A stretch of DNA of 64,000 nucleotides from an uncultured Verrucomicrobiae bacterium (GCA_963782205.1 CAWAIY010000007.1:43690-107689); one strand, 5' to 3'; positions 2,839-16,796 are shown, counted from the stretch's first letter. Made by a program: numbers and translations. Notes: generated by a model not told the origin, from the sequence alone.

Positions 2839-3997
2839 TCGCGCCGAAGGCCAGTCCGAGCCCGTAGGTCACGATCGCCTCGATCACGCCCACTATCGTC
2901 ATTTCCAAACCCGAGGCCCACCAGGAGCGAATGGTGATGAGCGATTTGATCGCGCCAACCGCGAAGTGCGCCACGATGCTGATGACAAAAGCCGCGATGA
3001 CCGCCGGGAACCCGCTCATGAAAAAGAACGGAACGATCGGAATGAATGCGCCGACCGCGGTGGAGAGCGCGGCGGAAAAGGCCGAAGTCCATTGGTTGGG
3101 AAAATTATGCTGGGAAAGACCCAGCTCGCTTTGTGCCATCGCCTGCACCATCTGCTCGGGCTGCTGCGCCAGCCGCTCCGCCATGCGTTGCGATTCCTCC
3201 GGGGCAAATCCCTGCAACTGATAAAAGAGCGCCATCTCCTCGATTTCCTCCTCGGGATTTTCATCGACCTCGGCTTTCTCGCGCGCAATCTCGGCCTCGT
3301 AGATTTCGCGCTCGCTCTTGTTTGCGAGGTAGGCGCCGGCGCCCATCGAAAGTGACGAGGCAAGCATGCCGGCAAGTCCCGCGATGAGAATGTAATGCTG
3401 CTGGTTGTCGGTTGCGCCGGCCACGCCGGAAACGATCCCGAAGACCGCGCCGAGCCCGTCGTTCACGCCGTAGATCGCGTCCGCCACCCAACCGCCGCCG
3501 CGACCATGCCAGCGTTCGCGTTTCAGAATGGTGTCGAGCACGCTTTTTGGGCCTAACGACGAGGGCGTTGCGCTCATCGTGTTCAAAATTCGCGAGTGCG
3601 CCTTTTCCTCGAGCGCGGTCTGGCGAAGAAATTCCTGCTCTTCATCGTTGCCAGCCAGCTCGCTCTGGCTTTGTGCCTGGTAACGCTCCTTGTCGCGATC
3701 TTCCGCGGCTTCCATCCGGCGGATCGCCACCTCCGCGCCGGCTGCGCGCGTCCACCAGCGATTAAGGCGCCGGCGCCAATCATTCCTCAAGACCGGCGGC
3801 GCGGCCCCGAGCTCATGCAACTTGTTTTCCCAGCGGACCGCGTGGCGTTCCTCCGCTTCCGCCATTCGAAGCAAAATGCCGCGGCGCTTTTCATCCAGCT
3901 CATTCGCGGCCAGGGCGCGGTAAACCAGCGCGGTTTCGCGTTCCGCGCGCCAATTGGCCTGGAGCGCTTCGACCGCTTTGACGTTATCCGGCTTCAT
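2831..3997 (-). CDS. VIT1/CCC1-family iron/manganese transporter with N-terminal ferritin-like (rubrerythrin-like) domain
   Basis: N-terminal ERETALVYRALA...AEAEERHAVRW resembles the ferritin-like fold. The C-terminal part is a multi-TM region with GVNDGLGAVFGIVSGV, typical of VIT1. Confidence 0.85.
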   Translation of the reverse strand: MKPDNVKAVEALQANWRAERETALVYRALAANELDEKRRGILLRMAEAEERHAVRWENKLHELGAAPPVLRNDWRRRLNRWWTRAAGAEVAIRRMEAAEDRDKERYQAQSQSELAGNDEEQEFLRQTALEEKAHSRILNTMSATPSSLGPKSVLDTILKRERWHGRGGGWVADAIYGVNDGLGAVFGIVSGVAGATDNQQHYILIAGLAGMLASSLSMGAGAYLANKSEREIYEAEIAREKAEVDENPEEEIEEMALFYQLQGFAPEESQRMAERLAQQPEQMVQAMAQSELGLSQHNFPNQWTSAFSAALSTAVGAFIPIVPFFFMSGFPAVIAAFVISIVAHFAVGAIKSLITIRSWWASGLEMTIVGVIEAIVTYGLGLAFGAIG

Positions 3998-8671: not shown

Positions 8672-10477
8672 ATGAAGAAATTGCTGGCGGTAGTCGCGAT
8701 GGCACTGGTGGCAGCGGCGGCGGCGTGGATTTTCGTGCGCGTCCAGCTGGCGAATCGCCTCGTGACGGTGCCAGAGTTGCTGCCGAAGGCGACGCTCTTC
8801 CTGGTGCACGTACCGGATGTGAGACGCGCGCGAGAAGGCTGGCAAGCGAGCGATCTTTACCAGATTTGGCGCGAGCCATCGGTCCAGAGTTGGCTGCAGA
8901 AGCCGCTCGGCCGCTTGCCGCAGAATGATAGGGACGGCAAAACGCTGGAGGAGTTTCTCCAGCTCGGCCCGACGCACGCTTTTATTGCTTTGGCGTCGCT
9001 TGAGAATAACGAACCGAAACTGGTCGGCGGGTTCCATTTTGCGGAGACGCCGGAAAAAGCGAAGCAATTTATCGCGCAACGCGAGGCGAAATGGTGGCCC
9101 AAAGCGGGCGACGCGAAGCGCGAAACGATTCTCTACGACCAACACCGGATCGAGACGCTAAACGTCTCGCATTTCGTTTTCGCGCGCGCCTTCGATAACC
9201 ATTGGTTCTTCGCCTCGAACAATCTCGCTGCGCTTAAGGCATTGCTGGATCGTGTCGATCGACGTCGAGAGAAAAAGGAGCCTTCGCTCAAGGATGATGA
9301 GGCGTTTGCCGCCGCGAGAAAGCATCTCGCGGGAGAATATGAGGGATTGCTTTTTGTCGACCCGCGGCCCTTCCTGGAAAGGCTGATGCCGCTCATCTTG
9401 ATGGCAGGCCAATCGCTCCCGGCTGCGCAGCTCGAACGGCTCAGATCAGTGCGCAGGGTGGCGGTAGCGCTCGGATTCGAACATGGCAAAATGCGCGAGA
9501 CCGATTTTGTGGAGATGCCGCGGGTCGGCACGGACAAAAAATTGACGCGTCCGCTCCTTGCCACCGCCGGGGCCGACACCTTTTTCTATTCTGTGTCGCG
9601 GATGTCTTGGCGGGACAATGTTTTCTCACCCACTACACCAGCGGCCAGCGGTCTTTCCGCGCTTATCCGGCAATTCAGCCTGGGGCTCGCCTCGCGCGGG
9701 ATTTCGGCCGACGACCTGGGGCAGGCCTTTGGTGAGCAACTGGAAATGACCGGCGCCTGGCAGGCGGACGCGCATTGGCCAACCTTTCTCGCCGCTCTGC
9801 CCGTGATTGACCCGGCACGCGCGCGGAAAATTGCTGAGGCGGTGACCTCCGTCGAGATCGCCGGCACGCCTTGGACGCGGACAGAGAAAAATGATGCGAC
9901 CATTTACAGCGCTCAACCGTTTGGCGGCGTGGTGCAGTTTAGTGCCACGGTCGCGGTTTCGGACAAGATGATGTTCCTTGGCTCGGACACGGGAGCGGTT
10001 GAAGCTGCGCTGGCGGGGCCGACTGAGCCGACCGGCGAACTAGAAAGAAGCGCCATTTTCCGGGACGCCGCGACGCAGGTTTCGGCCGGAGATTCGGCAT
10101 TTAATTACGTCGATACCCGGTTGTTATTCGAACGGGCAAACGCCGCCATCCGTCCGTTGCTCATCATGGGTGCAGCGGTGTATCCCGCCTTGGGGAAGGA
10201 TGTCGACTTGGCAAAGCTCCCACCGTCGGAGGCGATCGCGAAACATCTCTCGCCCATCGTGATGTCGCAGCGCTACGAGAGTGACGGCTATGTGACCGAA
10301 TCGGTTGGACCGGTGACATTTCGGGAGGCAACGATCGGAATCGCGGCCGTGGTGGGAAGCTCGCTCCTCTACTTCCGGGAAGGGTTGAGGAACCGCGGAC
10401 TTCTCCAGGCGGTGCCGGCCATCGCTTCCCCGACGCCAACGATGCCGTCCCCAAGTCCAACACCCAGCCCCTTTTGA
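8672..10477 (+). CDS. hypothetical exported protein (DUF3352-like)
   Basis: 601-aa ORF with the N-terminal anchor MKKLLAVVAMALVAAAAAW. The family assignment is from memory only. Confidence 0.6.
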   Translation: MKKLLAVVAMALVAAAAAWIFVRVQLANRLVTVPELLPKATLFLVHVPDVRRAREGWQASDLYQIWREPSVQSWLQKPLGRLPQNDRDGKTLEEFLQLGPTHAFIALASLENNEPKLVGGFHFAETPEKAKQFIAQREAKWWPKAGDAKRETILYDQHRIETLNVSHFVFARAFDNHWFFASNNLAALKALLDRVDRRREKKEPSLKDDEAFAAARKHLAGEYEGLLFVDPRPFLERLMPLILMAGQSLPAAQLERLRSVRRVAVALGFEHGKMRETDFVEMPRVGTDKKLTRPLLATAGADTFFYSVSRMSWRDNVFSPTTPAASGLSALIRQFSLGLASRGISADDLGQAFGEQLEMTGAWQADAHWPTFLAALPVIDPARARKIAEAVTSVEIAGTPWTRTEKNDATIYSAQPFGGVVQFSATVAVSDKMMFLGSDTGAVEAALAGPTEPTGELERSAIFRDAATQVSAGDSAFNYVDTRLLFERANAAIRPLLIMGAAVYPALGKDVDLAKLPPSEAIAKHLSPIVMSQRYESDGYVTESVGPVTFREATIGIAAVVGSSLLYFREGLRNRGLLQAVPAIASPTPTMPSPSPTPSPF

Positions 10478-10540
10478 GGGGAATTGCTCAATCTGGCGGA
10501 CCGCGTTGCGGAACCGTTCAGAGCGAGCGACATATTTTTC

Positions 10541-10548
10541 GCGGAAGT
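10541..10548. repeat. target-site duplication GCGGAAGT (left copy)
   Basis: This 8-mer is identical to 13683..13690 and directly abuts the left terminal inverted repeat. Confidence 0.8.
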
Positions 10549-10573
10549 CGGGATTATGCACTTCACGAATGTT
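10549..10573. repeat. left terminal inverted repeat CGGGATTATGCACTTCACGAATGTT
   Basis: The reverse complement of 13658..13682 is CGGGATTATGCACTTGACAAATGTT, which differs at two positions. Confidence 0.85.
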
Positions 10574-10612
10574 TGTGATCACTGCAAGATTAGCGTTAAG
10601 CTCTTTCCTCGC

Positions 10613-11206
10613 TTAGCGGTGGGATTTTTTAGAACGTCGCTCTCCCACCGGATTCGTTTGTCCCTTGAACTGATTCGGCGAATCAATAGGGCAGCCTCGC
10701 ACTTCTTCGATGATGAGCTGGCAGATATACATCATTGGGGTTAAAAGAAACTTCGACGGGCCAAAATTGATAATTTCCAATGTAATTGGACCCGACCATC
10801 CGGCGTGAATGGTTGGCGCGGTGAAGTGAATTAAAATGCCGCACCGCGCCAGCGAACTTTTGCCCTCGACGCGTGCGCTGTAACTTTGTGATTTATCTCC
10901 CAGGATCGGAAGGGTAATTCTCTCGTATGTATTCGCTAGAATAAGCTTGTTTGGCTTTAGCGTATATCCTTGGTCATCCTCTAATTTCTTCTTTTTGGAG
11001 TGCTTCGCCCAATATCCGGCAATTCCAGATTCCGTTAGATCAAGGGCTACTGGTGCGCCTTCTAAAACGTTTATTTCTTTTCCGAGGCGAAGATCGACGG
11101 CGCTCGTGTTGAACGGTGCCTGAGTTGGATCGGTGCCCGCTAAACCGTCAATCGTCAACGCCCCACGATTGATTGCGTTGATGATCTCCCTATTGCTTAA
11201 AATCAC
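10613..11206 (-). CDS. Dcd-like dCTP deaminase (dUTPase-fold) with basic C-terminal tail; transposon cargo
   Basis: GTG start. MILSNREIINAINRG...GKSSLARCGILIHFTAPTIHAGWSGPITLEIINFG closely resembles the Dcd core (E. coli GKSSLARLGL...DPGWSG). GC is low relative to the host. Confidence 0.85.
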   Translation of the reverse strand: MILSNREIINAINRGALTIDGLAGTDPTQAPFNTSAVDLRLGKEINVLEGAPVALDLTESGIAGYWAKHSKKKKLEDDQGYTLKPNKLILANTYERITLPILGDKSQSYSARVEGKSSLARCGILIHFTAPTIHAGWSGPITLEIINFGPSKFLLTPMMYICQLIIEEVRGCPIDSPNQFKGQTNPVGERRSKKSHR

Positions 11207-11229
11207 TAGGGTCGAGTCGTAGGCAATCT

Positions 11230-11514
11230 CTATGCGGCTTGCAAGAGTCTTTCGTTGATACTAAGCCACCGCGAGCCGGTTTGGAAGGCTTCGGACGGCA
11301 ATAAGACCGTCTTTTGATGTGGTTTCCCATTCTCTCCAACCAAAATTACCTGAATATGCGGCTTGCCTTTTATCTTTTTTATTAGCGAACGGTCGGCGAA
11401 CAGTGAAACGGATTTGTCGTCGAATTGAATTTCCACAGCAGCCTCGCTGCTAAACATTCCCTCAGCAATAGTGCAGGGAATCCAGACACGACGGGATGTA
11501 TTCATACGAATCAC
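11230..11514 (-). CDS. small hypothetical protein (94 aa) immediately upstream of the Dcd-like gene
   Basis: Same strand as the Dcd-like gene, with a 23-nt gap to its start. I recognise no family. Real coding status is inferred only from the ORF and its operon position. Confidence 0.5.
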   Translation of the reverse strand: MIRMNTSRRVWIPCTIAEGMFSSEAAVEIQFDDKSVSLFADRSLIKKIKGKPHIQVILVGENGKPHQKTVLLPSEAFQTGSRWLSINERLLQAA

Positions 11515-11689
11515 GAAACTCCACCCGTTGCGATAGTGTCAATAACAAAATGTCAAGTTTTTGGCGAGAGCCTACGGTTTTTTGATTCGACGGTCGGTGC
11601 GATTAGGATTCGTGGTTTTTCGCTTCGCCTTCTTCCCGCTTGGCGGCGGAGGAACACGCATCGCGCGACGCATCGCCTCGTCGAACTTG

Positions 11690-12061
11690 CTATTCGATGG
11701 CAGGCGAATCGGCTTTGGGCTTGGCATTGGCGATTTTCGGCACGCGAAATCTTTGGCGTACTAATTTTATGTCGATCTCAGGCTTCAAGTCCTCCGGCAT
11801 TATGTTGCCATTTTTTTTGATCGTATTACGGACTTCGCGACCAACGTTAAAGTGGATTTCTTTTGCGGCTTCTTCATCCGAGTTTTCTCGGCGCAACAAT
11901 CTTTCTTCCGTTTGAGTTGCTCGGAAAAAATGCGCAGCCAACTCCGATCTTCCGGCATGATCGAAGAGGTCAGCCGATGACGGCAGATTTTTTCGAGCCT
12001 TTACGGCATCCAAGCCCATATCATAAAGTCCGCGATATAGCGCGGTTGGTGAGATGCGCAA
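11690..12061 (-). pseudogene. DinD (DNA-damage-inducible protein D) C-terminal fragment
   Basis: GLYDMGLDAVKARKNL...DHAGRSELAAHFFRATQTEERL...HFNVGREVRNTIKKNGNIMPEDL aligns from memory with the C-terminal ~120 aa of E. coli DinD (HMGSTELAANLFRATQTEEKL...HFDVGRKVRQTI). The N-terminal ~150 aa have no room upstream. Confidence 0.7.
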
Positions 12062-12134
12062 TAAATCAAGAAATCACATCTTTACACTTTTTTTGTTGCG
12101 TTTCATATACACTAACACGACTGTCGCTCTCAGG

Positions 12135-12572
12135 ATGAACCTCCGCCGAAAACTAACTCGGGAGATTGAAAAGCAGGAAGTGAAAATTTCTCAGATGCGC
12201 AGCGATTTGGTGGCAGCGGAGGCATATCTGAAGGCACAGCAAGATGTGCTCAAGTTGCTGCCGCGCGAACCGCACCAGAGGGAGGCACATCAATTACGTG
12301 TCAACAGCGACCTTGCCAAAGCGCGAGAAATCATCGCAGAAGAGGGTAAGCCGATTCACGTAAGCGAACTCCTTAAACGACTGGGGAAGGAACTTACGCG
12401 GGATAGCAGGGCATCGCTAAGTGCATCAATCGGAGCATATGTTCGTAGAAATGAAATTTTCACACGCCCTGCGCCGAACACTTTTGGGCTGGTCGTGTTC
12501 AACGGTGCCCAAGAGGCTGATCCGGAACCACCCGAAGGATTTGGAATAGACGAAGAAAAGGCCGAGATGTGA
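12135..12572 (+). CDS. hypothetical coiled-coil protein with C-terminal HARE-HTH-like winged helix
   Basis: KPIHVSELLKRLGKELTRDSRASLSASIGAYVRRNEIFTRPAPNTFGL resembles the HARE-HTH pattern. The start at the ATG 12135 (MNLRRKL) is preferred over the track start at 12054. Confidence 0.55.
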   Translation: MNLRRKLTREIEKQEVKISQMRSDLVAAEAYLKAQQDVLKLLPREPHQREAHQLRVNSDLAKAREIIAEEGKPIHVSELLKRLGKELTRDSRASLSASIGAYVRRNEIFTRPAPNTFGLVVFNGAQEADPEPPEGFGIDEEKAEM

Positions 12573-12580
12573 TCTCGGCC
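12560..12580 (+). terminator. hairpin GGCCGAGAT-gtg-ATCTCGGCC overlapping the stop codon, followed by TTT
   Basis: Perfect 9-bp stem read from the sequence. The T-tract is short. Confidence 0.5.
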
Positions 12581-12591
12581 TTTCAGGACTT

Positions 12592-12666
12592 GCCTACGTA
12601 GTTCAAATGCCGGTTAGAACACCCGCCTTGGGAGCGGGAGAAGTGGGTCCAATCCCCACCGTAGGC
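12592..12666 (+). tRNA. tRNA-Pro(UGG)-like cloverleaf, atypical (possible pseudo or mobile-element tRNA)
   Basis: Folded by hand. The stems are: acceptor GCCTACG/CGTAGGC, D GTTC/GAAC, anticodon CCCGC/GCGGG, T GTGGG/CCCAC, and all pair perfectly. The anticodon loop is CTTGGGA. Three features are atypical: a 12-nt D loop, a T loop of TCCAATC (C where the conserved T55 should be), and no encoded CCA. Confidence 0.55.
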
Positions 12667-13634
12667 TATTTCATTGCATTTTTCAATGGCTTCAACGTTA
12701 GGCGCTTTCCCTCCGCCAATTTCAGGGCGGAAACCGTGCGCTCTCCATCGGTGATTTTCCGATTGTTGTAGCGATGATCGAATTCCGCCAAATAGAGAGG
12801 CAGATGTTTCTTAGACACTTGATGAAACGTGCCAATCACTCCGCGCTTTAGCAGGGAAAATTTACTTTCAACGGTGTTTGTGTGGACAGTGAAATCTCCC
12901 TCGCGGCGAGCATATTCCTTCGCCGAATGCTTGACGGCCTTGTGTTTGAAAATCTTCGGCATCCCGCGATAGGCAAGGAAATCGTCCGTGCAAACCGTTG
13001 AGCCGTCTTGAACGTGTTCCATGATTGCGTTTTTCAGGTTGCGTCCGGTGACGCGATCCAGAACAAGCGAGCGTGCGTTGCCGCCGCGCTCGACCAGCGA
13101 AACGACGCAAGTTTTATTTGATCGTCCCGCTTTGCCGCCGTCGCGCACCTTGCCGCCGACGTAAGTTTCGTCTACTTCGACCGTCCCGCTCAGCATCCCG
13201 GTAAACGCTGGATGCGAGAGCGCGTATCGAATGCGGTGCATCATGAAAAGCGCGCTGCGATAGCTGCCAAGGCCCAGCATTCGCTGGATCTGAAGCGAGC
13301 TGATGCCTTTTTTCGAGGAACAGAGAAGGTACCACGCCACGAGCCATTTTCGGAGCGGGATGTGCGAATCCTCGAAGATCGTCCCGACTGTGACCGTGAA
13401 CTGCTTTTTGCAAATGGCGCACTGGCGCAATCCGGCGCGCACCTTCGCTCTATCGTTAGGCTTGATCTCCCAGAATTTCGTTTCGTCGGCGTTTTTGCAA
13501 TGCGGACAAACGATCCCATTGGGCCAGCGAATTTCCTCTAAGTATTGGCGCGCTTTTTCGTCCGATGCGAAGCGGATATTGATCTCATCGAGCGTCAAAT
13601 CCTCTGGCGTTGGCAGCATGGATTTTCGTTTCAT
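12666..13634 (-). CDS. IS1595-family transposase (N-terminal zinc ribbon + ISXO2-like DDE domain)
   Basis: The protein contains ...ARQYLEEIRWPNGIVCPHCKN...CAICKKQFTVTVGTIFEDSHIPLRKW...VEVDETYVGG...TDDFLAYRG...HTNTVESKFSLLKRG, the characteristic IS1595/ISXO2 pattern. Confidence 0.9.
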   Translation of the reverse strand: MKRKSMLPTPEDLTLDEINIRFASDEKARQYLEEIRWPNGIVCPHCKNADETKFWEIKPNDRAKVRAGLRQCAICKKQFTVTVGTIFEDSHIPLRKWLVAWYLLCSSKKGISSLQIQRMLGLGSYRSALFMMHRIRYALSHPAFTGMLSGTVEVDETYVGGKVRDGGKAGRSNKTCVVSLVERGGNARSLVLDRVTGRNLKNAIMEHVQDGSTVCTDDFLAYRGMPKIFKHKAVKHSAKEYARREGDFTVHTNTVESKFSLLKRGVIGTFHQVSKKHLPLYLAEFDHRYNNRKITDGERTVSALKLAEGKRLTLKPLKNAMK

Positions 13635-13657
13635 GCGACCAGTCTCGTTTATTCTTT

Positions 13658-13682
13658 AACATTTGTCAAGTGCATAATCCCG
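13658..13682. repeat. right terminal inverted repeat AACATTTGTCAAGTGCATAATCCCG
   Basis: Inverted partner of 10549..10573 (23/25 match). It lies 24 nt upstream of the transposase start. Confidence 0.85.
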
Positions 13683-13690
13683 GCGGAAGT
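13683..13690. repeat. target-site duplication GCGGAAGT (right copy)
   Basis: Identical to 10541..10548 and directly abuts the right IR. Confidence 0.8.
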
Positions 13691-13737
13691 GAGAAAACTG
13701 CTGCTATTCGGCCGGAATATGTTATTTTTTTCGCCCT

Positions 13738-14058
13738 ATGGCCATCCTAAAAAAGAACGCCTTCTCACGCCGAGTGCCAGATCTCGTTACGGAAGAACTC
13801 GTTGCGGTTCTTTCCCGACGCACTTCATTCGAGTTTAAGCAACTCTTTGAGATCCTGCATGAAAATCTCCGAGCCCGCAACGCGGCCAGCGGTGGAGAAG
13901 AAATGTTGCGCCTGCGCGCCTATGAGAAGCTGCAAAACTTGGTGGCGCGGGGGATGGTCAAGAAAACCGGCAAGAAATATCGGGGATTACCTTCCGCTCT
14001 GGCCAAGGCGTTGATCCCGCCGAACGGCCACCTCCCGACCGCTGCGGCCTCTCGCTAG
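13738..14058 (+). CDS. hypothetical protein (106 aa)
   Basis: ORF with host-like composition lying outside the transposon. I recognise no family. Confidence 0.45.
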   Translation: MAILKKNAFSRRVPDLVTEELVAVLSRRTSFEFKQLFEILHENLRARNAASGGEEMLRLRAYEKLQNLVARGMVKKTGKKYRGLPSALAKALIPPNGHLPTAAASR

Positions 14059-14478: not shown

Positions 14479-14531
14479 CGTCGGAGAAAAAAGGCTCGCC
14501 CGGCGTCCGTAGTGCGGTTTTAGTCGTCGCG

Positions 14532-16463
14532 ATGCTCGCGCTGGGTTACCTCGCCGTTGTCATCGTCCTAGGCGACCGGATTCGCGGGAAATTCTGGCTC
14601 GCACCATCGCCGTTGCACCGGTGGGCGGCGGCATTCCTGGTCGGCATTCTTGTCAGCACATGGCTGACTTATCTTTTCGGCGTCGCGTTTGCTGCCAGCG
14701 CCAAGCCACTCGTCTGGGCAAACCTTTTCTTTTTTATCGTCGCAGGCTTTTGCCTGCTTCTTTTGCGCCGCTTCGACGACCTCGATTCCATCTCGGTCCC
14801 CCCGAAAAAGTTAGATTGGCGAGACGCGCTCTTTGTCGCCGCGTTTCTGGCGGTCTCCTGTTGGCTGATGTTCGGCACGCTGTCGATGGTCGACGGCGAC
14901 GTACTCCTCGCTTCCGTCGTCTGGAACGATTTCGGGCCCAATCTTGCCTTGATGCAAAGCTTCGCGCTCGGGCACAACTTTCCGGCTGAGTATCCCTATT
15001 TCATTCACGAACCGATCCGATACCATTTTCTGTTTTGGTTTCAGGCCGGTAACCTTGAGTTTCTCGGACTCAACCTGGCCGCGGCGCTCAATCTCTTGAG
15101 CGCGCTGTCGATGCTGGCGTTGTTGATCTCCATCCTGACATTGGGCGAAGCGCTCTTTGGATCGCGCGTAATCGGCGGCATTGCTGCGTTGCTCCTTTTT
15201 TTTCACGGCTCGCTCTCTTACGTGCCGTTTCTGCAGTCGCAGCATTCAGTGGGCGGCGCCATCCACGCCATCACCCACCTGAACCGCTGGCTTTCATCCG
15301 GTTACCCGTACAGGGGCGAAGACTGGGGAATCTGGTCGCCGAGCATCCTTTACGTGCAACGGCATTTGCTGGGCGCGGTCGGAATCCTTTGTCTGGTGCT
15401 GACGTTTCTTGTCGAGTTTTACAAACAAAAATCGGCCGGTCGCGAGCGGGCGCCGGAAGAGGAACCGGTCGCGTCCCCGCCCCTGCGGAGTTTCATTTTC
15501 TGCGGAGTGCTCATCGGCCTTCTCGTCTGCTGGAACAGTCCGATCTTCGTTTCTGCGCTGACTTTGATCGGCTGTTTGTTTCTCTTTCTGCCCGGGCGCG
15601 TCCGCCTCGCGGCGCTACTGAGCACCGCGCTCCTCATCGGCCTTCCGCAGGTGTTGTTGCTCGGCTTCGCCCAAACAAGCCATCGTTTTTCGATCCTTCA
15701 TTGGGGTTACACGCTCGAGAATCCGACTTTCGCCAAGGCCGTCACTTATTTCCTTTTCACGTTCGGGCCCAAGCTGGGACTCGCTTTCATGGCGATCATT
15801 TTGCTCCGAACGATGCATCGCGTGTTCTTCCTGGCCATGGCCAGCCTCCTCGTGCTGGCTTTTGGGACCCAGTTGAGCGTGGACATCATGAATAACCAGA
15901 AGTTCCTCTACCTCTGGCTGATTCTGCTGAACCTCTTCGTGGCTTACGCGCTGGCACGGATCTATCGCGTTCAGTTCGTCGGCAAAGTTGCGGCAATTCT
16001 ACTCGGCGCGAGCGTGATCGCCGGCGGCGCGATCGAACTGTTTTGTGTTCACAACGACCACTGGATCGATGTCCCGTTTCGGAACAACGCGCTCTCGCAA
16101 TGGCTCCTGCAAAATACCAAGCCGAGCGATGTGTTTCTGACCGACCGATTCGTTCATCATCCGATCCTGATGAACGGCCGCCGGATATTTTACGGCTGGC
16201 CCTATTTTCCGTGGTCGATGGGTTACGAGACGGCCAAACGCGACACAGCCTACAGGCTAATGTTTAGCGCAACGAACCCCGATCTTTTGCTCGATCTGCT
16301 GAAAAGCAACGGAATCGATTACGTCGGGATCGACAACGGTCTGCGTCAGGGATATCTGGGGGTCGGCGCGCACGAAAACGTCTTCGCGTCGAGTCTCCCG
16401 AGGGTGTTTCAGGACAGGGAAAAGCGCTTCGGTGGCCTGACAATCTACAAAGTTCCGCGTTGA
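14532..16463 (+). CDS. large polytopic membrane protein, possibly GT-C-fold (family 39/83-like) glycosyltransferase
   Basis: 643 aa with more than 10 predicted TM segments and a C-terminal soluble domain. The family call is tentative. Confidence 0.55.
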   Translation: MLALGYLAVVIVLGDRIRGKFWLAPSPLHRWAAAFLVGILVSTWLTYLFGVAFAASAKPLVWANLFFFIVAGFCLLLLRRFDDLDSISVPPKKLDWRDALFVAAFLAVSCWLMFGTLSMVDGDVLLASVVWNDFGPNLALMQSFALGHNFPAEYPYFIHEPIRYHFLFWFQAGNLEFLGLNLAAALNLLSALSMLALLISILTLGEALFGSRVIGGIAALLLFFHGSLSYVPFLQSQHSVGGAIHAITHLNRWLSSGYPYRGEDWGIWSPSILYVQRHLLGAVGILCLVLTFLVEFYKQKSAGRERAPEEEPVASPPLRSFIFCGVLIGLLVCWNSPIFVSALTLIGCLFLFLPGRVRLAALLSTALLIGLPQVLLLGFAQTSHRFSILHWGYTLENPTFAKAVTYFLFTFGPKLGLAFMAIILLRTMHRVFFLAMASLLVLAFGTQLSVDIMNNQKFLYLWLILLNLFVAYALARIYRVQFVGKVAAILLGASVIAGGAIELFCVHNDHWIDVPFRNNALSQWLLQNTKPSDVFLTDRFVHHPILMNGRRIFYGWPYFPWSMGYETAKRDTAYRLMFSATNPDLLLDLLKSNGIDYVGIDNGLRQGYLGVGAHENVFASSLPRVFQDREKRFGGLTIYKVPR

Positions 16464-16796
16464 GCGACGATGTTCGCCCTGATTTTTCTCGCTCGACCGA
16501 TCGCTTCGCGGAATCGAAATCGCGCAGCGCCTCTTTCCATTCACACATAGCGGCGAACGATTGTTATGGGCGCGGGGCTGGGACCGCCGCGAGCCACTTT
16601 CAAAAACGTCGAAAGTACCATTTACGCCGCTGCCCCGGCCGAATCTGAGCAATGAAGAATGGCAAACTTCCCAGTGTGGCGGTTGCGCCATTCGTCATCG
16701 GAAATCGCTTCAGGCTCCGAGCTTTGTCATTCGTCATTTCACACCTCGGATTCGTGCTTGCGCCACCGTCGGCCCAAGCCTAATAGCTATCCGCTC

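Follow-up and report, generated by a model that had tools for sequence, protein, structure and literature searches.

A recently inserted IS1595-family element carrying a conserved tRNA-shaped gene in an uncultured Verrucomicrobiae bacterium

Analysis of a 64,000-nt stretch of DNA from an uncultured Verrucomicrobiae bacterium (here termed the window) showed that positions 10549-13682 are a real 3.1-kb mobile element of the IS1595 family, as demonstrated by the empty site in sister strains. The element is very probably a single ‘transporter IS’ of recent insertion, composed of conserved and exchangeable parts, with a tRNA gene as a selected passenger. In the proposed mechanism, the single zinc-ribbon/DDE transposase would bind both 25-bp ends and join them to a target opened by cuts staggered by 8 bp, and repair would then produce the GCGGAAGT duplication, with all DNA between the ends travelling along with the transposase. 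The conserved part comprises the two inverted repeats (IRs), the transposase gene (tnp) and a convergent tRNA-shaped UGG gene overlapping the tnp stop codon, and the exchangeable part of the window copy, which has lost 501 bp of dinD, consists of a HARE-HTH/DinD module and an orf94/Dcd module; the tRNA is very probably a passenger under selection rather than a transposition factor. To our knowledge, the chemistry of IS1595 transposition (cut-and-paste or copy-and-paste) is not established. New with respect to an earlier note on this DNA are the near-constancy of the tRNA in the lineage, the 501-bp deletion explaining the DinD fragment and the use of the same 8-bp target by an 82%-identical element.

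Table 1. Features of the element and its immediate borders (window coordinates).
Feature	Position	Strand	Remarks
Left copy of the 8-bp target-site duplication, GCGGAAGT	10541..10548		Occurs once in the empty sites (eight related contigs)
Transposase-distal terminal IR, CGGGATTATGCACTTCACGAATGTT	10549..10573	+	Inverted copy (23/25) of 13658-13682
dCTP deaminase (dUTPase-fold Dcd), 197 aa	10613..11206	-	PF22769 4.5e-30, TIGR02274, phrog_1663
94-aa ORF, Dcd-linked	11230..11514	-	Homologue (57% identity) adjoins Dcd in L016
3' part of dinD/Bro-N gene, remnant	11690..12036	-	Mechanical ORF extends to 12061
Coiled-coil + HARE-HTH-like protein, 145 aa (most likely start)	12135..12572	+	Mechanical ORF begins at 12054
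Perfect 12-bp hairpin	12557..12583		On the minus strand followed by TTTTCTTCGTC; ends 8 nt before the tRNA
tRNA-like gene, anticodon UGG	12592..12667	+	Rfam RF00005; convergent with tnp, 3' end overlaps the tnp stop codon
IS1595-family transposase, 322 aa, intact	12666..13634	-	PF12762, PF12760, NF033547
Transposase-proximal terminal IR, reverse complement CGGGATTATGCACTTGACAAATGTT	13658..13682	-	Pairs with 10549-10573
Right copy of the 8-bp target-site duplication, GCGGAAGT	13683..13690		Exact match to the left copy

The ends of the 3134-bp unit (window 10549-13682) are a pair of 25-bp IRs matching at 23 of 25 positions with GCGGAAGT directly outside each, as the earlier note had read them. 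The pair 10549/13682 was ranked first by a repeat finder in the window, and a degenerate IR pattern allowing up to 3 mismatches gave 2 matches in the 64 kb compared with 0.00 expected (100 shuffles). The IR consensus in relatives is (C/G)(G/A)GGATTATGCACTT(G/C)ACAAA(T/G)G, position 16 being C at the distal end and G at the proximal end of the window copy, an asymmetry shared by many relatives. The insertion site is intergenic, with a DUF3352 gene on one side and a 106-aa ORF on the other, in a soil bacterium that, to judge by its relatives, probably belongs to the Verrucomicrobiota, and the cargo is indeed AT-richer, as had been proposed, with a G+C of 0.489 versus 0.53 for tnp and 0.61 and 0.567 for the flanks. 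The 64-kb window contains no further copy of the element, and the exact transposase sequence is on record for a single locus. Copy number lends no support to recent activity of the window copy, which also carries a deletion.

The empty site predicted by removal of the element, CATATTTTTC-GCGGAAGT-GAGAAAACTG, was found letter for letter, uninterrupted and with a single GCGGAAGT, in eight related contigs, with flanks that match the window at 96-99.6% identity. Specifically, the reconstructed site CATATTTTTCGCGGAAGTGAGAAAACTG is exact in L002, L003, L004, L006/L011, L007, L008, L009 and L010, and the distance from the DUF3352 gene to the 106-aa ORF in these contigs is 118 nt. The empty site corresponds to the exact removal of 10549-13690 and nothing less, tnp and cargo being gone together. 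L006 is empty with flanks 99.6% identical to the window, which shows the insertion to be recent. In an independent assembly (L001), both junctions are reproduced and the element is 100% identical to the window copy apart from 501 extra bp, and another strain has, in this very 8-bp target but in reverse orientation, a related element of only 82% identity. The exact empty sites and the intact transposase support the earlier interpretation of the 3134 bp as one transposable unit.

It is hardly credible that the transposase, with two ends of its own, forms a simple IS of ~1.1 kb beside an unrelated AT-rich islet, the left IR being a solo copy or a chance match. This would agree with the transposase abutting only one IR, with the difference in G+C between cargo and tnp and with the recurrence of an IR-core 8-mer, AAGTGCAT, at 12414-12426, the sole internal echo of the IR. 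The 8-mer is compatible with chance and, being in the right-end orientation, could not close a shorter IS around the transposase, and neither the degenerate pattern search, with as many as 3 mismatches allowed, nor the repeat finder gave a left-end-oriented IR from the tnp stop to the left IR; the earlier note had already seen none just past the stop codon. No complete IS ending within about 12580-12670 was found either: of the 40 complete elements related to it, even the shortest measures 1698 bp, none is transposase-only and all carry cargo. The simple ~1.1-kb IS is contradicted already by the empty sites in eight contigs, by the missing IR and by the cargo in all relatives.

The 40 related elements (1.7-4.3 kb) share the same end consensus and 8-bp duplications (38 identical, two with one mismatch), and their target sites are distinguished only by a high AT content, no complementarity with the tRNA being seen. 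One Blastocatellia contig contains two 100%-identical 4480-bp copies (L032 and L033), each with tnp, tRNA(UGG) and cargo, flanked by different duplications (ATTCCTTT and TTTATTTT), which shows that such a unit transposes whole. As in a transporter IS, genes with no part in transposition are enclosed by the IRs and travel along with them, as seen from the empty site and from L032/L033.

The transposase matched the full PF12762 DDE_Tnp_IS1595 profile (4.8e-36) and PF12760 Zn_ribbon_IS1595 (1.9e-13), and the ORF at 12666-13634 scored 197.7 bits against the NCBIfam IS1595 transposase model NF033547 (cutoff 75), in agreement with the zinc ribbon and ISXO2-like DDE domain previously recognized. All 72 positions invariant in 38 full-length relatives are kept, including C43, C46, C72, C75, D155, D217 and E284. 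The zinc ribbon with ISXO2-like DDE domain, the short terminal IRs and the 8-bp duplication place the element in the IS1595 family. The closest annotated plasmid-borne relatives from cultured bacteria reach no more than 46% identity and carry no label beyond ‘IS1595 family transposase’. The ISNwi1/ISNwi1+ subgroup of the ISfinder tables has ends ggnnatTAT, 8-bp duplications and lengths of 1.75-4.75 kb with passengers; the ends found here, of the form NNGGATTAT, resemble that motif, and the element may belong to this subgroup. The ‘transporter IS’ concept (an IS with passenger genes) is attributed to Siguier et al. 2009 in PMC3129680, and the family traits named in the earlier note, 8-bp duplications and passenger genes, agree with it. 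IS1595 transporter ISs (Siguier, Gagnevin & Chandler 2009, via PMC3129680) share with the present elements a single zinc-ribbon and ISXO2-like DDE transposase, short terminal IRs, 8-bp duplications and passengers inside the IRs (1.7-4.3 kb). The difference lies in the conserved tRNA-shaped gene as a near-constant passenger, of which no description in IS1595 elements was found in a literature search.

The Dcd-like gene, 94-aa ORF, DinD fragment and HARE-HTH ORF previously named in the cargo were confirmed. Dcd scored 108 bits against TIGR02274 (cutoff 92.8) and has a 61%-identical copy in a different element (L016); the 94-aa ORF had no Pfam, NCBIfam, PADLOC or PHROG match. The DinD fragment matches positions 175-278 of 288 (C-terminal) of NF008573, and the dinD gene of L001 is intact (279 aa). 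The window lacks L001 1678-2178 (501 bp), the junction being at 12036/12037, and on this alignment the window copy derives from an element of 3637 bp by loss of 501 bp; the DinD fragment is explained by this deletion, which is specific to the window copy. The HARE-HTH protein gave a weak match (PF05066, 3.9e-5, below gathering score) and has homologues in L005 (85%) and L015 (48%), translation most likely beginning at 12135 (MNLRR..., kept in L005 and L015) and not at 12054. The HARE-HTH+DinD module is found only in L001, L005 and L015, the Dcd+orf94 module also in L016, and other elements carry type IIG RM/methylase, HNH, ParE, SocA/Panacea, Kinase-PolyVal or 2TM-TIR-like genes; judged from these gene contents, the cargo is modular and exchangeable between elements. 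The truncated DinD was the sole PADLOC match (candidate family PDC-S13, 1.2e-28), with no PADLOC defence model matching Dcd, orf94, HARE-HTH or Tnp and no complete PADLOC anti-phage gene set among the cargo proteins, and a role of the cargo in defence is conjecture.

The tRNA-like gene called in the earlier note scored 57.4 bits against Rfam RF00005 (12592-12667; gathering score 29) and is further borne out by covariation, ARAGORN leaving it uncalled; the gene is a conserved companion of the transposase lineage and not random cargo, which refines the earlier reading. It could be a dead hitch-hiker, that is, a functionless piece or pseudogene of a host tRNA that was taken up once and has been passively carried since, as might be suggested by the ARAGORN result, the non-canonical T-loop, some 8-nt anticodon loops, the several complete elements lacking a tRNA and the lack of room for a promoter of its own in the window copy. 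This is made very unlikely by the stems of 37 distinct relatives, in which pairing holds in 99.6% of cells and compensated double changes have occurred at 15 of 21 pairs, a level of covariation matched by 0 of 500 shuffles (slid controls, 40-50% pairing). G-U pairs are confined to the tRNA-sense strand (23 G-U and 3 unpaired cells in sense, 0 G-U and 26 unpaired in antisense), and the anticodon, first three acceptor pairs and discriminator show no variation, unlike the remaining stem positions, which change freely; conserved too are the bases of tertiary interactions, U8, A14, G53, T54, C56, A58 and C61. The anticodon is TGG in all but one of ~58 IS-linked tRNA genes. Of 52 loci that could be assessed (Tnp identity of 70% or more), 40 have a tRNA on the opposite strand no more than 450 nt beyond the tnp stop, and another four have it farther off or in the other orientation. 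Position and anticodon persist even with transposases of as little as 42% identity, in several phyla and on a different tRNA body. From this conservation, the tRNA gene is evidently not incidental cargo.

RNA-dependent transposases exist in the IS110 and IS200/IS605 families, and with this precedent the tight linkage to tnp, the stop-codon overlap and the conservation over deep divergence could point to the tRNA-like RNA as a transposition cofactor, perhaps guiding the zinc-ribbon transposase or acting as its scaffold, and thus belonging to the machinery rather than the cargo. We consider this highly improbable, as complete elements without a tRNA (L097, with a Tnp 74% identical, L020, L021, L028-L031, L106, L112, L114 and L116) keep perfect 8-bp duplications, which indicates that the tRNA is dispensable for transposition. 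Plasmid-borne relatives from cultured organisms also have no tRNA, and the AT-rich targets mentioned above show no complementarity to it.

The hairpin upstream of the tRNA gene is followed by a T-run on the tnp strand only and probably terminates tnp transcription; in relatives, the corresponding place is taken by a GC hairpin that covaries. In most relatives, a promoter-like leader of ~110 nt with a conserved TTGGTC-N18-AGAAAT and the hairpin precedes the tRNA. These features, together with the tnp stop-codon overlap in most relatives (gap 1-50 nt), would suit a gene acting mainly as a regulator against tnp, by antisense transcription from the tRNA promoter into the tnp 3' end that would keep transposase levels low, with the fold serving only as a stable processed RNA end. 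Such a role seems unlikely, since it leaves the invariant UGG anticodon and the conserved acceptor end and tertiary bases unexplained, and the promoter region is missing from several copies, that of the window included, in which the tRNA is nevertheless intact. With no leader and only 8 nt separating it from the hairpin, the window tRNA may be poorly expressed.

Returning to the tRNA as a selected passenger, the anticodon (UGG) contains the G35 and G36 of bacterial tRNA-Pro. E. coli ProRS identity requires A73 and C1:G72; the acceptor end of the window clade departs from that of bacterial tRNA-Pro, G1:C72 and U73 both being invariant. U55 is near-universal in tRNAs, and the T-loop of the class-I clade is TCCRAYC (C55) throughout, departing from the canonical T54-U55-C56. 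Anticodon loops have 8 nt in ~10 of 37 clade members and 7 nt in the window copy. C55, U73, G1:C72, the 8-nt loops in about a quarter of the clade and the ARAGORN rejection speak against standard decoding. The window tRNA is of the short class-I type with U73, and no dedicated synthetase is encoded in the element. Distant class-II relatives combine the UGG anticodon and G1:C72 with a tRNA-Leu-like body (D arm GTGGCGAAACTGGTAAACGC, long variable arm, A73). Recognition by bacterial LeuRS is independent of the anticodon, so that the class-II tRNA could insert Leu at CCA/CCG.

Our best guess is that the tRNA is expressed and acts through its UGG anticodon, in decoding CCA/CCG, codons favoured by the AT-richer element genes over those of the host, or in a non-standard role. 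A bolder and doubtful reading would make tRNA(UGG) the real payload of a widespread soil IS1595 lineage, either reinterpreting CCA/CCG or serving as an anticodon-loop toxin, decoy or regulator. If so, this would be a mobile non-canonical tRNA, with a Leu body in distant relatives and a remodelled short body (U73, C55) in the window clade; CCA/CCG might be read as Leu or another amino acid, copies with 8-nt loops might read quadruplets, and control of the tRNA may lie with the small coiled-coil/winged-helix protein whose gene is immediately upstream.

Among known systems, natural and engineered mistranslating tRNAs include bacterial tRNAProX and the tRNASer(UGG) used in yeast (reviewed in PMC11415595), to which the class-II relatives, pairing a Leu-like body with a proline anticodon, show some likeness; the window tRNA differs in being a short class-I type with U73. 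Soil Acidobacteria also have allo-tRNAs and irregular tRNAs, which occur in association with transposon-related ORFs and with toxin-antitoxin loci (Mukai et al. 2017, PMC5389517; review PMC7609411), and one reported tRNA overlaps a transposon-related ORF, for which the authors speculated on a link with transposable elements (PMC5389517; PMC7609411). The soil metagenome origin and an anticodon mismatched to the apparent identity of the body are common to both (PMC5389517). However, allo-tRNAs have an 8/4 or 9/3 acceptor/T-stem, Ser-like identity and mostly a UAU anticodon (PMC5389517), whereas the present tRNAs have standard 7/5 geometry, a UGG anticodon and Leu-like or short class-I bodies; IS1595 linkage, IRs and duplications are not described for allo-tRNAs, and ‘UGG’ is absent from PMC5389517. 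As with the tRNA genes of phages, plasmids and integrative elements, a mobile element with genes AT-richer than those of the host here carries a tRNA matching a codon that it favours: in the present elements CCA makes up 38% of Pro codons, compared with 12% in host genes (p = 5e-5). In contrast to these, the carrier here is no large replicon but a DDE transposon of 2-4 kb that holds one to a few genes, and the tRNA has C55, U73 and in some copies 8-nt loops, with a Leu-like body and Pro anticodon in distant relatives.

The IS1595-family element at 10549-13682 (3134 bp) is a clean, fully delimited transporter IS, an insertion sequence of a known kind that carries passenger genes inside its terminal inverted repeats (IRs). 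Direct reading of 10300-13900 bore out the earlier note's description of 25-bp IRs matching at 23/25 positions and bounded by a perfect 8-bp duplication. Within the 64-kb window, a degenerate IR pattern with up to three mismatches matched at the two IR sites only (expected 0.00 from 100 dinucleotide shuffles), and the IR pair was the longest inverted repeat returned by a repeat finder. The note had also seen no IR-like sequence past the transposase stop codon, and a search there with ≤3 mismatches likewise gave none, the sole echo being an 8-mer in the wrong orientation. Its reading of the only transposase as a zinc ribbon plus ISXO2-like DDE protein was upheld by PF12760 (1.9e-13), PF12762 (4.8e-36) and NF033547 (197.7 bits; cutoff 75), which identify a full-length IS1595-family transposase; the protein keeps 72/72 positions that do not vary among 38 full-length relatives, with the CxxC pairs, D155, D217 and E284 among them. 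The cargo gene calls were correct by domain and family profile matches. G+C was 0.489 in the cargo and 0.53 in the transposase gene vs 0.61 and 0.567 in the flanks.

That the 3134 bp form one transposable unit, as had been proposed, was confirmed in related strains. Among contigs retrieved through the neighbouring 106-aa protein and DUF3352 protein, the predicted empty-site string CATATTTTTCGCGGAAGTGAGAAAACTG, joined at a single octamer, was found letter for letter in eight (L002, L003, L004, L006/L011, L007, L008, L009 and L010). The flanks of these empty contigs align to the window until 10548 and restart at 13683 with 96-99.6% identity; since L006 is empty with flanks 99.6% identical to the window, the window insertion is recent. 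The filled allele was recovered in L001, a 3697-bp Logan contig from a separate assembly that has the same two junctions and matches the window element at 100% identity save for 501 extra bp. Logan contigs were presumably built with k = 31, in which case the 30 nt outside each IR at the L001 termini would be k-1; given that value, such ends would be as expected from a graph branch if sample ERR11571143 contained both the filled and the empty allele. The original finding is real and was correctly interpreted in the earlier note. A tRNA-targeting integrative island was also considered and dropped, there being no integrase and the tRNA gene being internal to the element and linked to the transposase gene.

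The segment missing from the window copy codes for the first 164 of the 279 residues of a DinD/Bro-N protein. The “DinD fragment” is thus a gene truncated by a deletion that removed its 5' part, and the ancestral element length is 3637 bp. A second presence/absence polymorphism adjoins the transposon just right of nuoA, where a segment containing a 643-aa membrane-protein ORF is absent from L003; the ORF is also missing from the gene lists of L004 and L008.

Coordinates of the features of the window element and of related loci (window positions unless a contig is named)
Feature	Location	Remark
Left-end IR CGGGATTATGCACTTCACGAATGTT	10549-10573	Inverted copy of right end, differing at 2/25 positions
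Right-end IR AACATTTGTCAAGTGCATAATCCCG	13658-13682	Inverted copy of left end, differing at 2/25 positions
Duplicated octamer GCGGAAGT	10541-10548 and 13683-13690	Directly outside both IRs
Transposase ORF	12666-13634(-)	Full length
tRNA gene	12592-12667(+)	Rfam tRNA model, 57.4 bits
Deletion junction	12036/12037	Microhomology 2 nt
Segment deleted from window copy	L001:1678-2178	501 bp
Termini of L001	L001:1-30 and 3668-3697	Exactly 30 nt outside each IR
Second presence/absence polymorphism	14485-16748	
643-aa membrane-protein ORF	14532-16463	
Second element in the same target	L005:964-4526	3563 bp
First leader type	L109, L110, L014, L058, L016, L061 and others	~125 nt upstream of tRNA
Second leader type	L060, L077, L126, L065, L082, L059	Other sequence, same two-hairpin layout
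Plasmid IS1595 loci (Roseomonas, Methylobacterium)	L138:4903-6281; L139:1713-3114	Transposase, hypothetical gene, PIN/VapC toxin; no tRNA found
Tandem irregular tRNA-like sequence	L069:3002-3091	Likewise in L092, L095, L064, L089
tRNA with Leu-like body	L035:8471-8557	Anticodon AGA by ARAGORN

The same target octamer is occupied in another strain, represented by contig L005, by an element with the same duplication and the opposite orientation. The flanks of this strain are ~98% identical to the window, whereas the two elements are only ~82% identical over the transposase-tRNA-HARE-DinD portion, and two membrane-protein genes replace orf94/Dcd. Inversion by IR recombination, a process documented for other IS (PMC3004938), with later exchange of cargo would be an alternative origin. 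The simplest reading, because strains closer to the window are empty, is that a hot spot received two independent insertions. For this locus, near-identical strains with and without the insertion are available, as are a precursor form of the element and another, probably independent, occupant of the target. Across the family, the octamers duplicated on insertion are rich in A/T (67-89% at internal positions) without a strict consensus. A flanking motif, CTTGC-N7-8-TTGTGAA, is common to at least eight insertion sites (L015, L016, L027, L087, L090, L088, L096 and L097). It begins 3-5 bp from the duplication, to the left or the right of the element, and may represent a host promoter or a repeat serving as preferred target.

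Searching GTDB genomes and JGI metagenomes with the transposase extended the analysis to 125 loci, mostly from soil Verrucomicrobiota MAGs but also from Alphaproteobacteria, Acidobacteriota, Gemmatimonadota, Krumholzibacteriia and Eisenbacteria. In 40 loci, a scripted search recovered the end consensus (C/G)(G/A)GGATTATGCACTT(G/C)ACAAA(T/G)G at both ends, with an 8-bp duplication outside them (38 identical, two with one mismatch). These complete elements measure 1698-4255 bp, and a bare transposase was seen in 0/40. The two ends of the window element differ (G or C) at position 16 of the IR, and in many relatives this recurs as a proximal/distal asymmetry. In end motif (NNGGATTAT), 8-bp duplication and range of lengths, the family would fit the ISNwi1/ISNwi1+ subgroup. 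Direct evidence that such a cargo-bearing unit moves whole came from a Blastocatellia contig with two 100%-identical 4480-bp copies (transposase, tRNA and cargo) with different duplications, ATTCCTTT and TTTATTTT.

The cargo of the family is modular, with fast turnover. HARE-HTH with DinD was found only in L001, L005 and L015, and Dcd with orf94 recurs, differently arranged, in L016. Most of 67 representative cargo proteins gave no Pfam match; the Pfam and model matches obtained include a type IIG restriction-methylase, HNH, ParE, SocA/Panacea, Kinase-PolyVal, Bro-N, Dcd and 2TM-TIR-like proteins, the window Dcd scoring above the NCBIfam cutoff for dCTP deaminase. In the window cargo, Dcd, orf94 and the HARE-HTH protein matched no PADLOC model, so that no defence system can be named; a defence role is a plausible conjecture. 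Very small transposons are shown by these elements to shuttle toxin-antitoxin, restriction and nucleotide-metabolism modules between soil bacteria. The nearest transposase relatives on plasmids of cultured Alphaproteobacteria share ≤46% identity; a hypothetical gene and then a PIN/VapC toxin gene lie downstream of them in the same orientation.

Amid this turnover, a large, mostly uncultured lineage of small DDE transposons retains a tRNA-shaped gene whose proline anticodon is fixed. ARAGORN reported no tRNA in the window, and the Rfam covariance model was needed to detect the gene, whose last base pair and discriminator overlap the transposase stop codon. With nhmmer, the same gene was found directly after the transposase gene, on the opposite strand, in 41 loci. 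In an alignment of 37 distinct copies, 99.6% of cloverleaf cells were paired and 15/21 pairs showed compensatory double changes (112 double-change cells vs 27 ± 4 in shuffles, the observed value being reached by 0/500), whereas slid controls gave 40-50% pairing. All 23 G-U pairs (23/23) are on the tRNA-sense strand; the antisense strand would give 26 mismatches. Invariant positions are G1, C2, C3 and their partners, U8, A9, G10, U34-G35-G36 and G53-T54-C55-C56-A58-C61; U73 has one exception, A14 and U33 are kept in ≥90% of copies, and acceptor pairs 4-7 and the remaining stems vary freely.

All loci were then scanned with ARAGORN and a covariance model built from this alignment. With transposases ≥70% identical, a tRNA was present ≤450 nt after the stop codon in 40/52 assessable loci and further away in four more; the frequency was 14/37 at 55-70% identity and 7/23 below 55%. 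The anticodon was TGG in all but one of ~58 copies. Complete elements without any tRNA exist, and since they keep perfect duplications the tRNA is not required for movement. Plasmid relatives from Roseomonas, Methylobacterium, Pseudosulfitobacter and Mesorhizobium had no tRNA by ARAGORN or Rfam, so no culturable carrier of the arrangement was identified.

In most window-type (class I) relatives the tRNA is preceded by a conserved leader of ~110 nt. This leader starts with an inverted repeat (GCGCGGA...TCCGCGC) overlapping a promoter-like TTGGTC-N18-AGAAAT, continues with a covarying GC hairpin followed by a T-run on the transposase strand only, and then GAAAGACCGAC. This layout suggests a tRNA promoter plus a transposase terminator. 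The upstream hairpins were seen by eye; RNAalifold on the 125-nt upstream region recovered the tRNA alone, the alignment across the two leader types being too poor for a consensus, and a sigma-70 promoter scan of the element gave no match. In the window, L005, L015, L100 and L078-L081, the leader is replaced by a cargo-gene terminator hairpin ending 8-25 nt before the tRNA, and for this reason the window tRNA may be expressed by read-through only. The co-oriented gene just upstream often encodes a small coiled-coil protein with a C-terminal winged helix weakly like HARE-HTH. Of these tRNA-adjacent ORFs, 17/44 fall in one cluster, 3/15 of those weakly match PF05066, and the profile-profile match to the window HARE-HTH protein is poor (probability 3%, E = 0.015), giving only a hint of a single family.

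Two tRNA body types were distinguished. Class I tRNAs measure 72-77 nt and have a variable loop of 4-5 nt, the T-loop TCCRAYC and U73; about a quarter of them have an 8-nt anticodon loop. The second type accompanies more distantly related transposases, in several phyla. It measures 82-102 nt, has GTGGCGAAACTGGTAAACGC as its D arm, a long variable arm, A73 and a canonical TTCRA loop, and is nearest to tRNA-Leu (mean identity 63% to E. coli tRNA-Leu(CAG) vs 53% for Ser and 48% for Tyr).

CCA makes up 38% of proline codons in element genes vs 12% in host genes (p = 5e-5), an excess that would count for ordinary decoding by the same logic as for phage-borne tRNAs. Against ordinary decoding are C55, U73, G1:C72 and the 8-nt anticodon loops, bacterial ProRS identity needing A73 and C1:G72. 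Because bacterial LeuRS charges independently of the anticodon, tRNAs that combine a Leu-like body with a Pro anticodon would be charged with leucine. Convergent transcription into the transposase gene could give the tRNA a purely regulatory role, but this leaves the fixed anticodon unexplained. If charged and used, these RNAs would amount to naturally mobile tRNAs that reinterpret codons and spread through transposition; if not, to a new class of transposon-associated structured RNA. At 2-4 kb, the elements are short enough for direct synthesis and testing.

IS1595 elements with passenger genes are already known, as described in PMC3129680 and in PMC4611040, each of which cites Siguier et al. 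2009. Literature searches on IS1595, transposase-adjacent tRNA-like genes, Leu-body/Pro-anticodon tRNAs and ISNwi1 returned no paper tying IS1595 to a tRNA; what is new beyond known transporter IS is the lineage-wide tRNA(UGG) passenger. The allo-tRNAs and irregular tRNAs of soil Acidobacteria (Mukai et al. 2017, PMC5389517) differ from the element tRNAs in geometry, anticodon and identity. In five loci a tandem irregular tRNA-like sequence, read by ARAGORN as “tRNA-???” with a two-base anticodon, lies just upstream of the UGG tRNA, recalling the irregular-tRNA polycistrons reported from soil metatranscriptomes. The Leu-like tRNA of L035, a Pyrinomonadaceae chromosome, lies ~1.5 kb downstream of an IS1595-type transposase and may be another body/anticodon mismatch.
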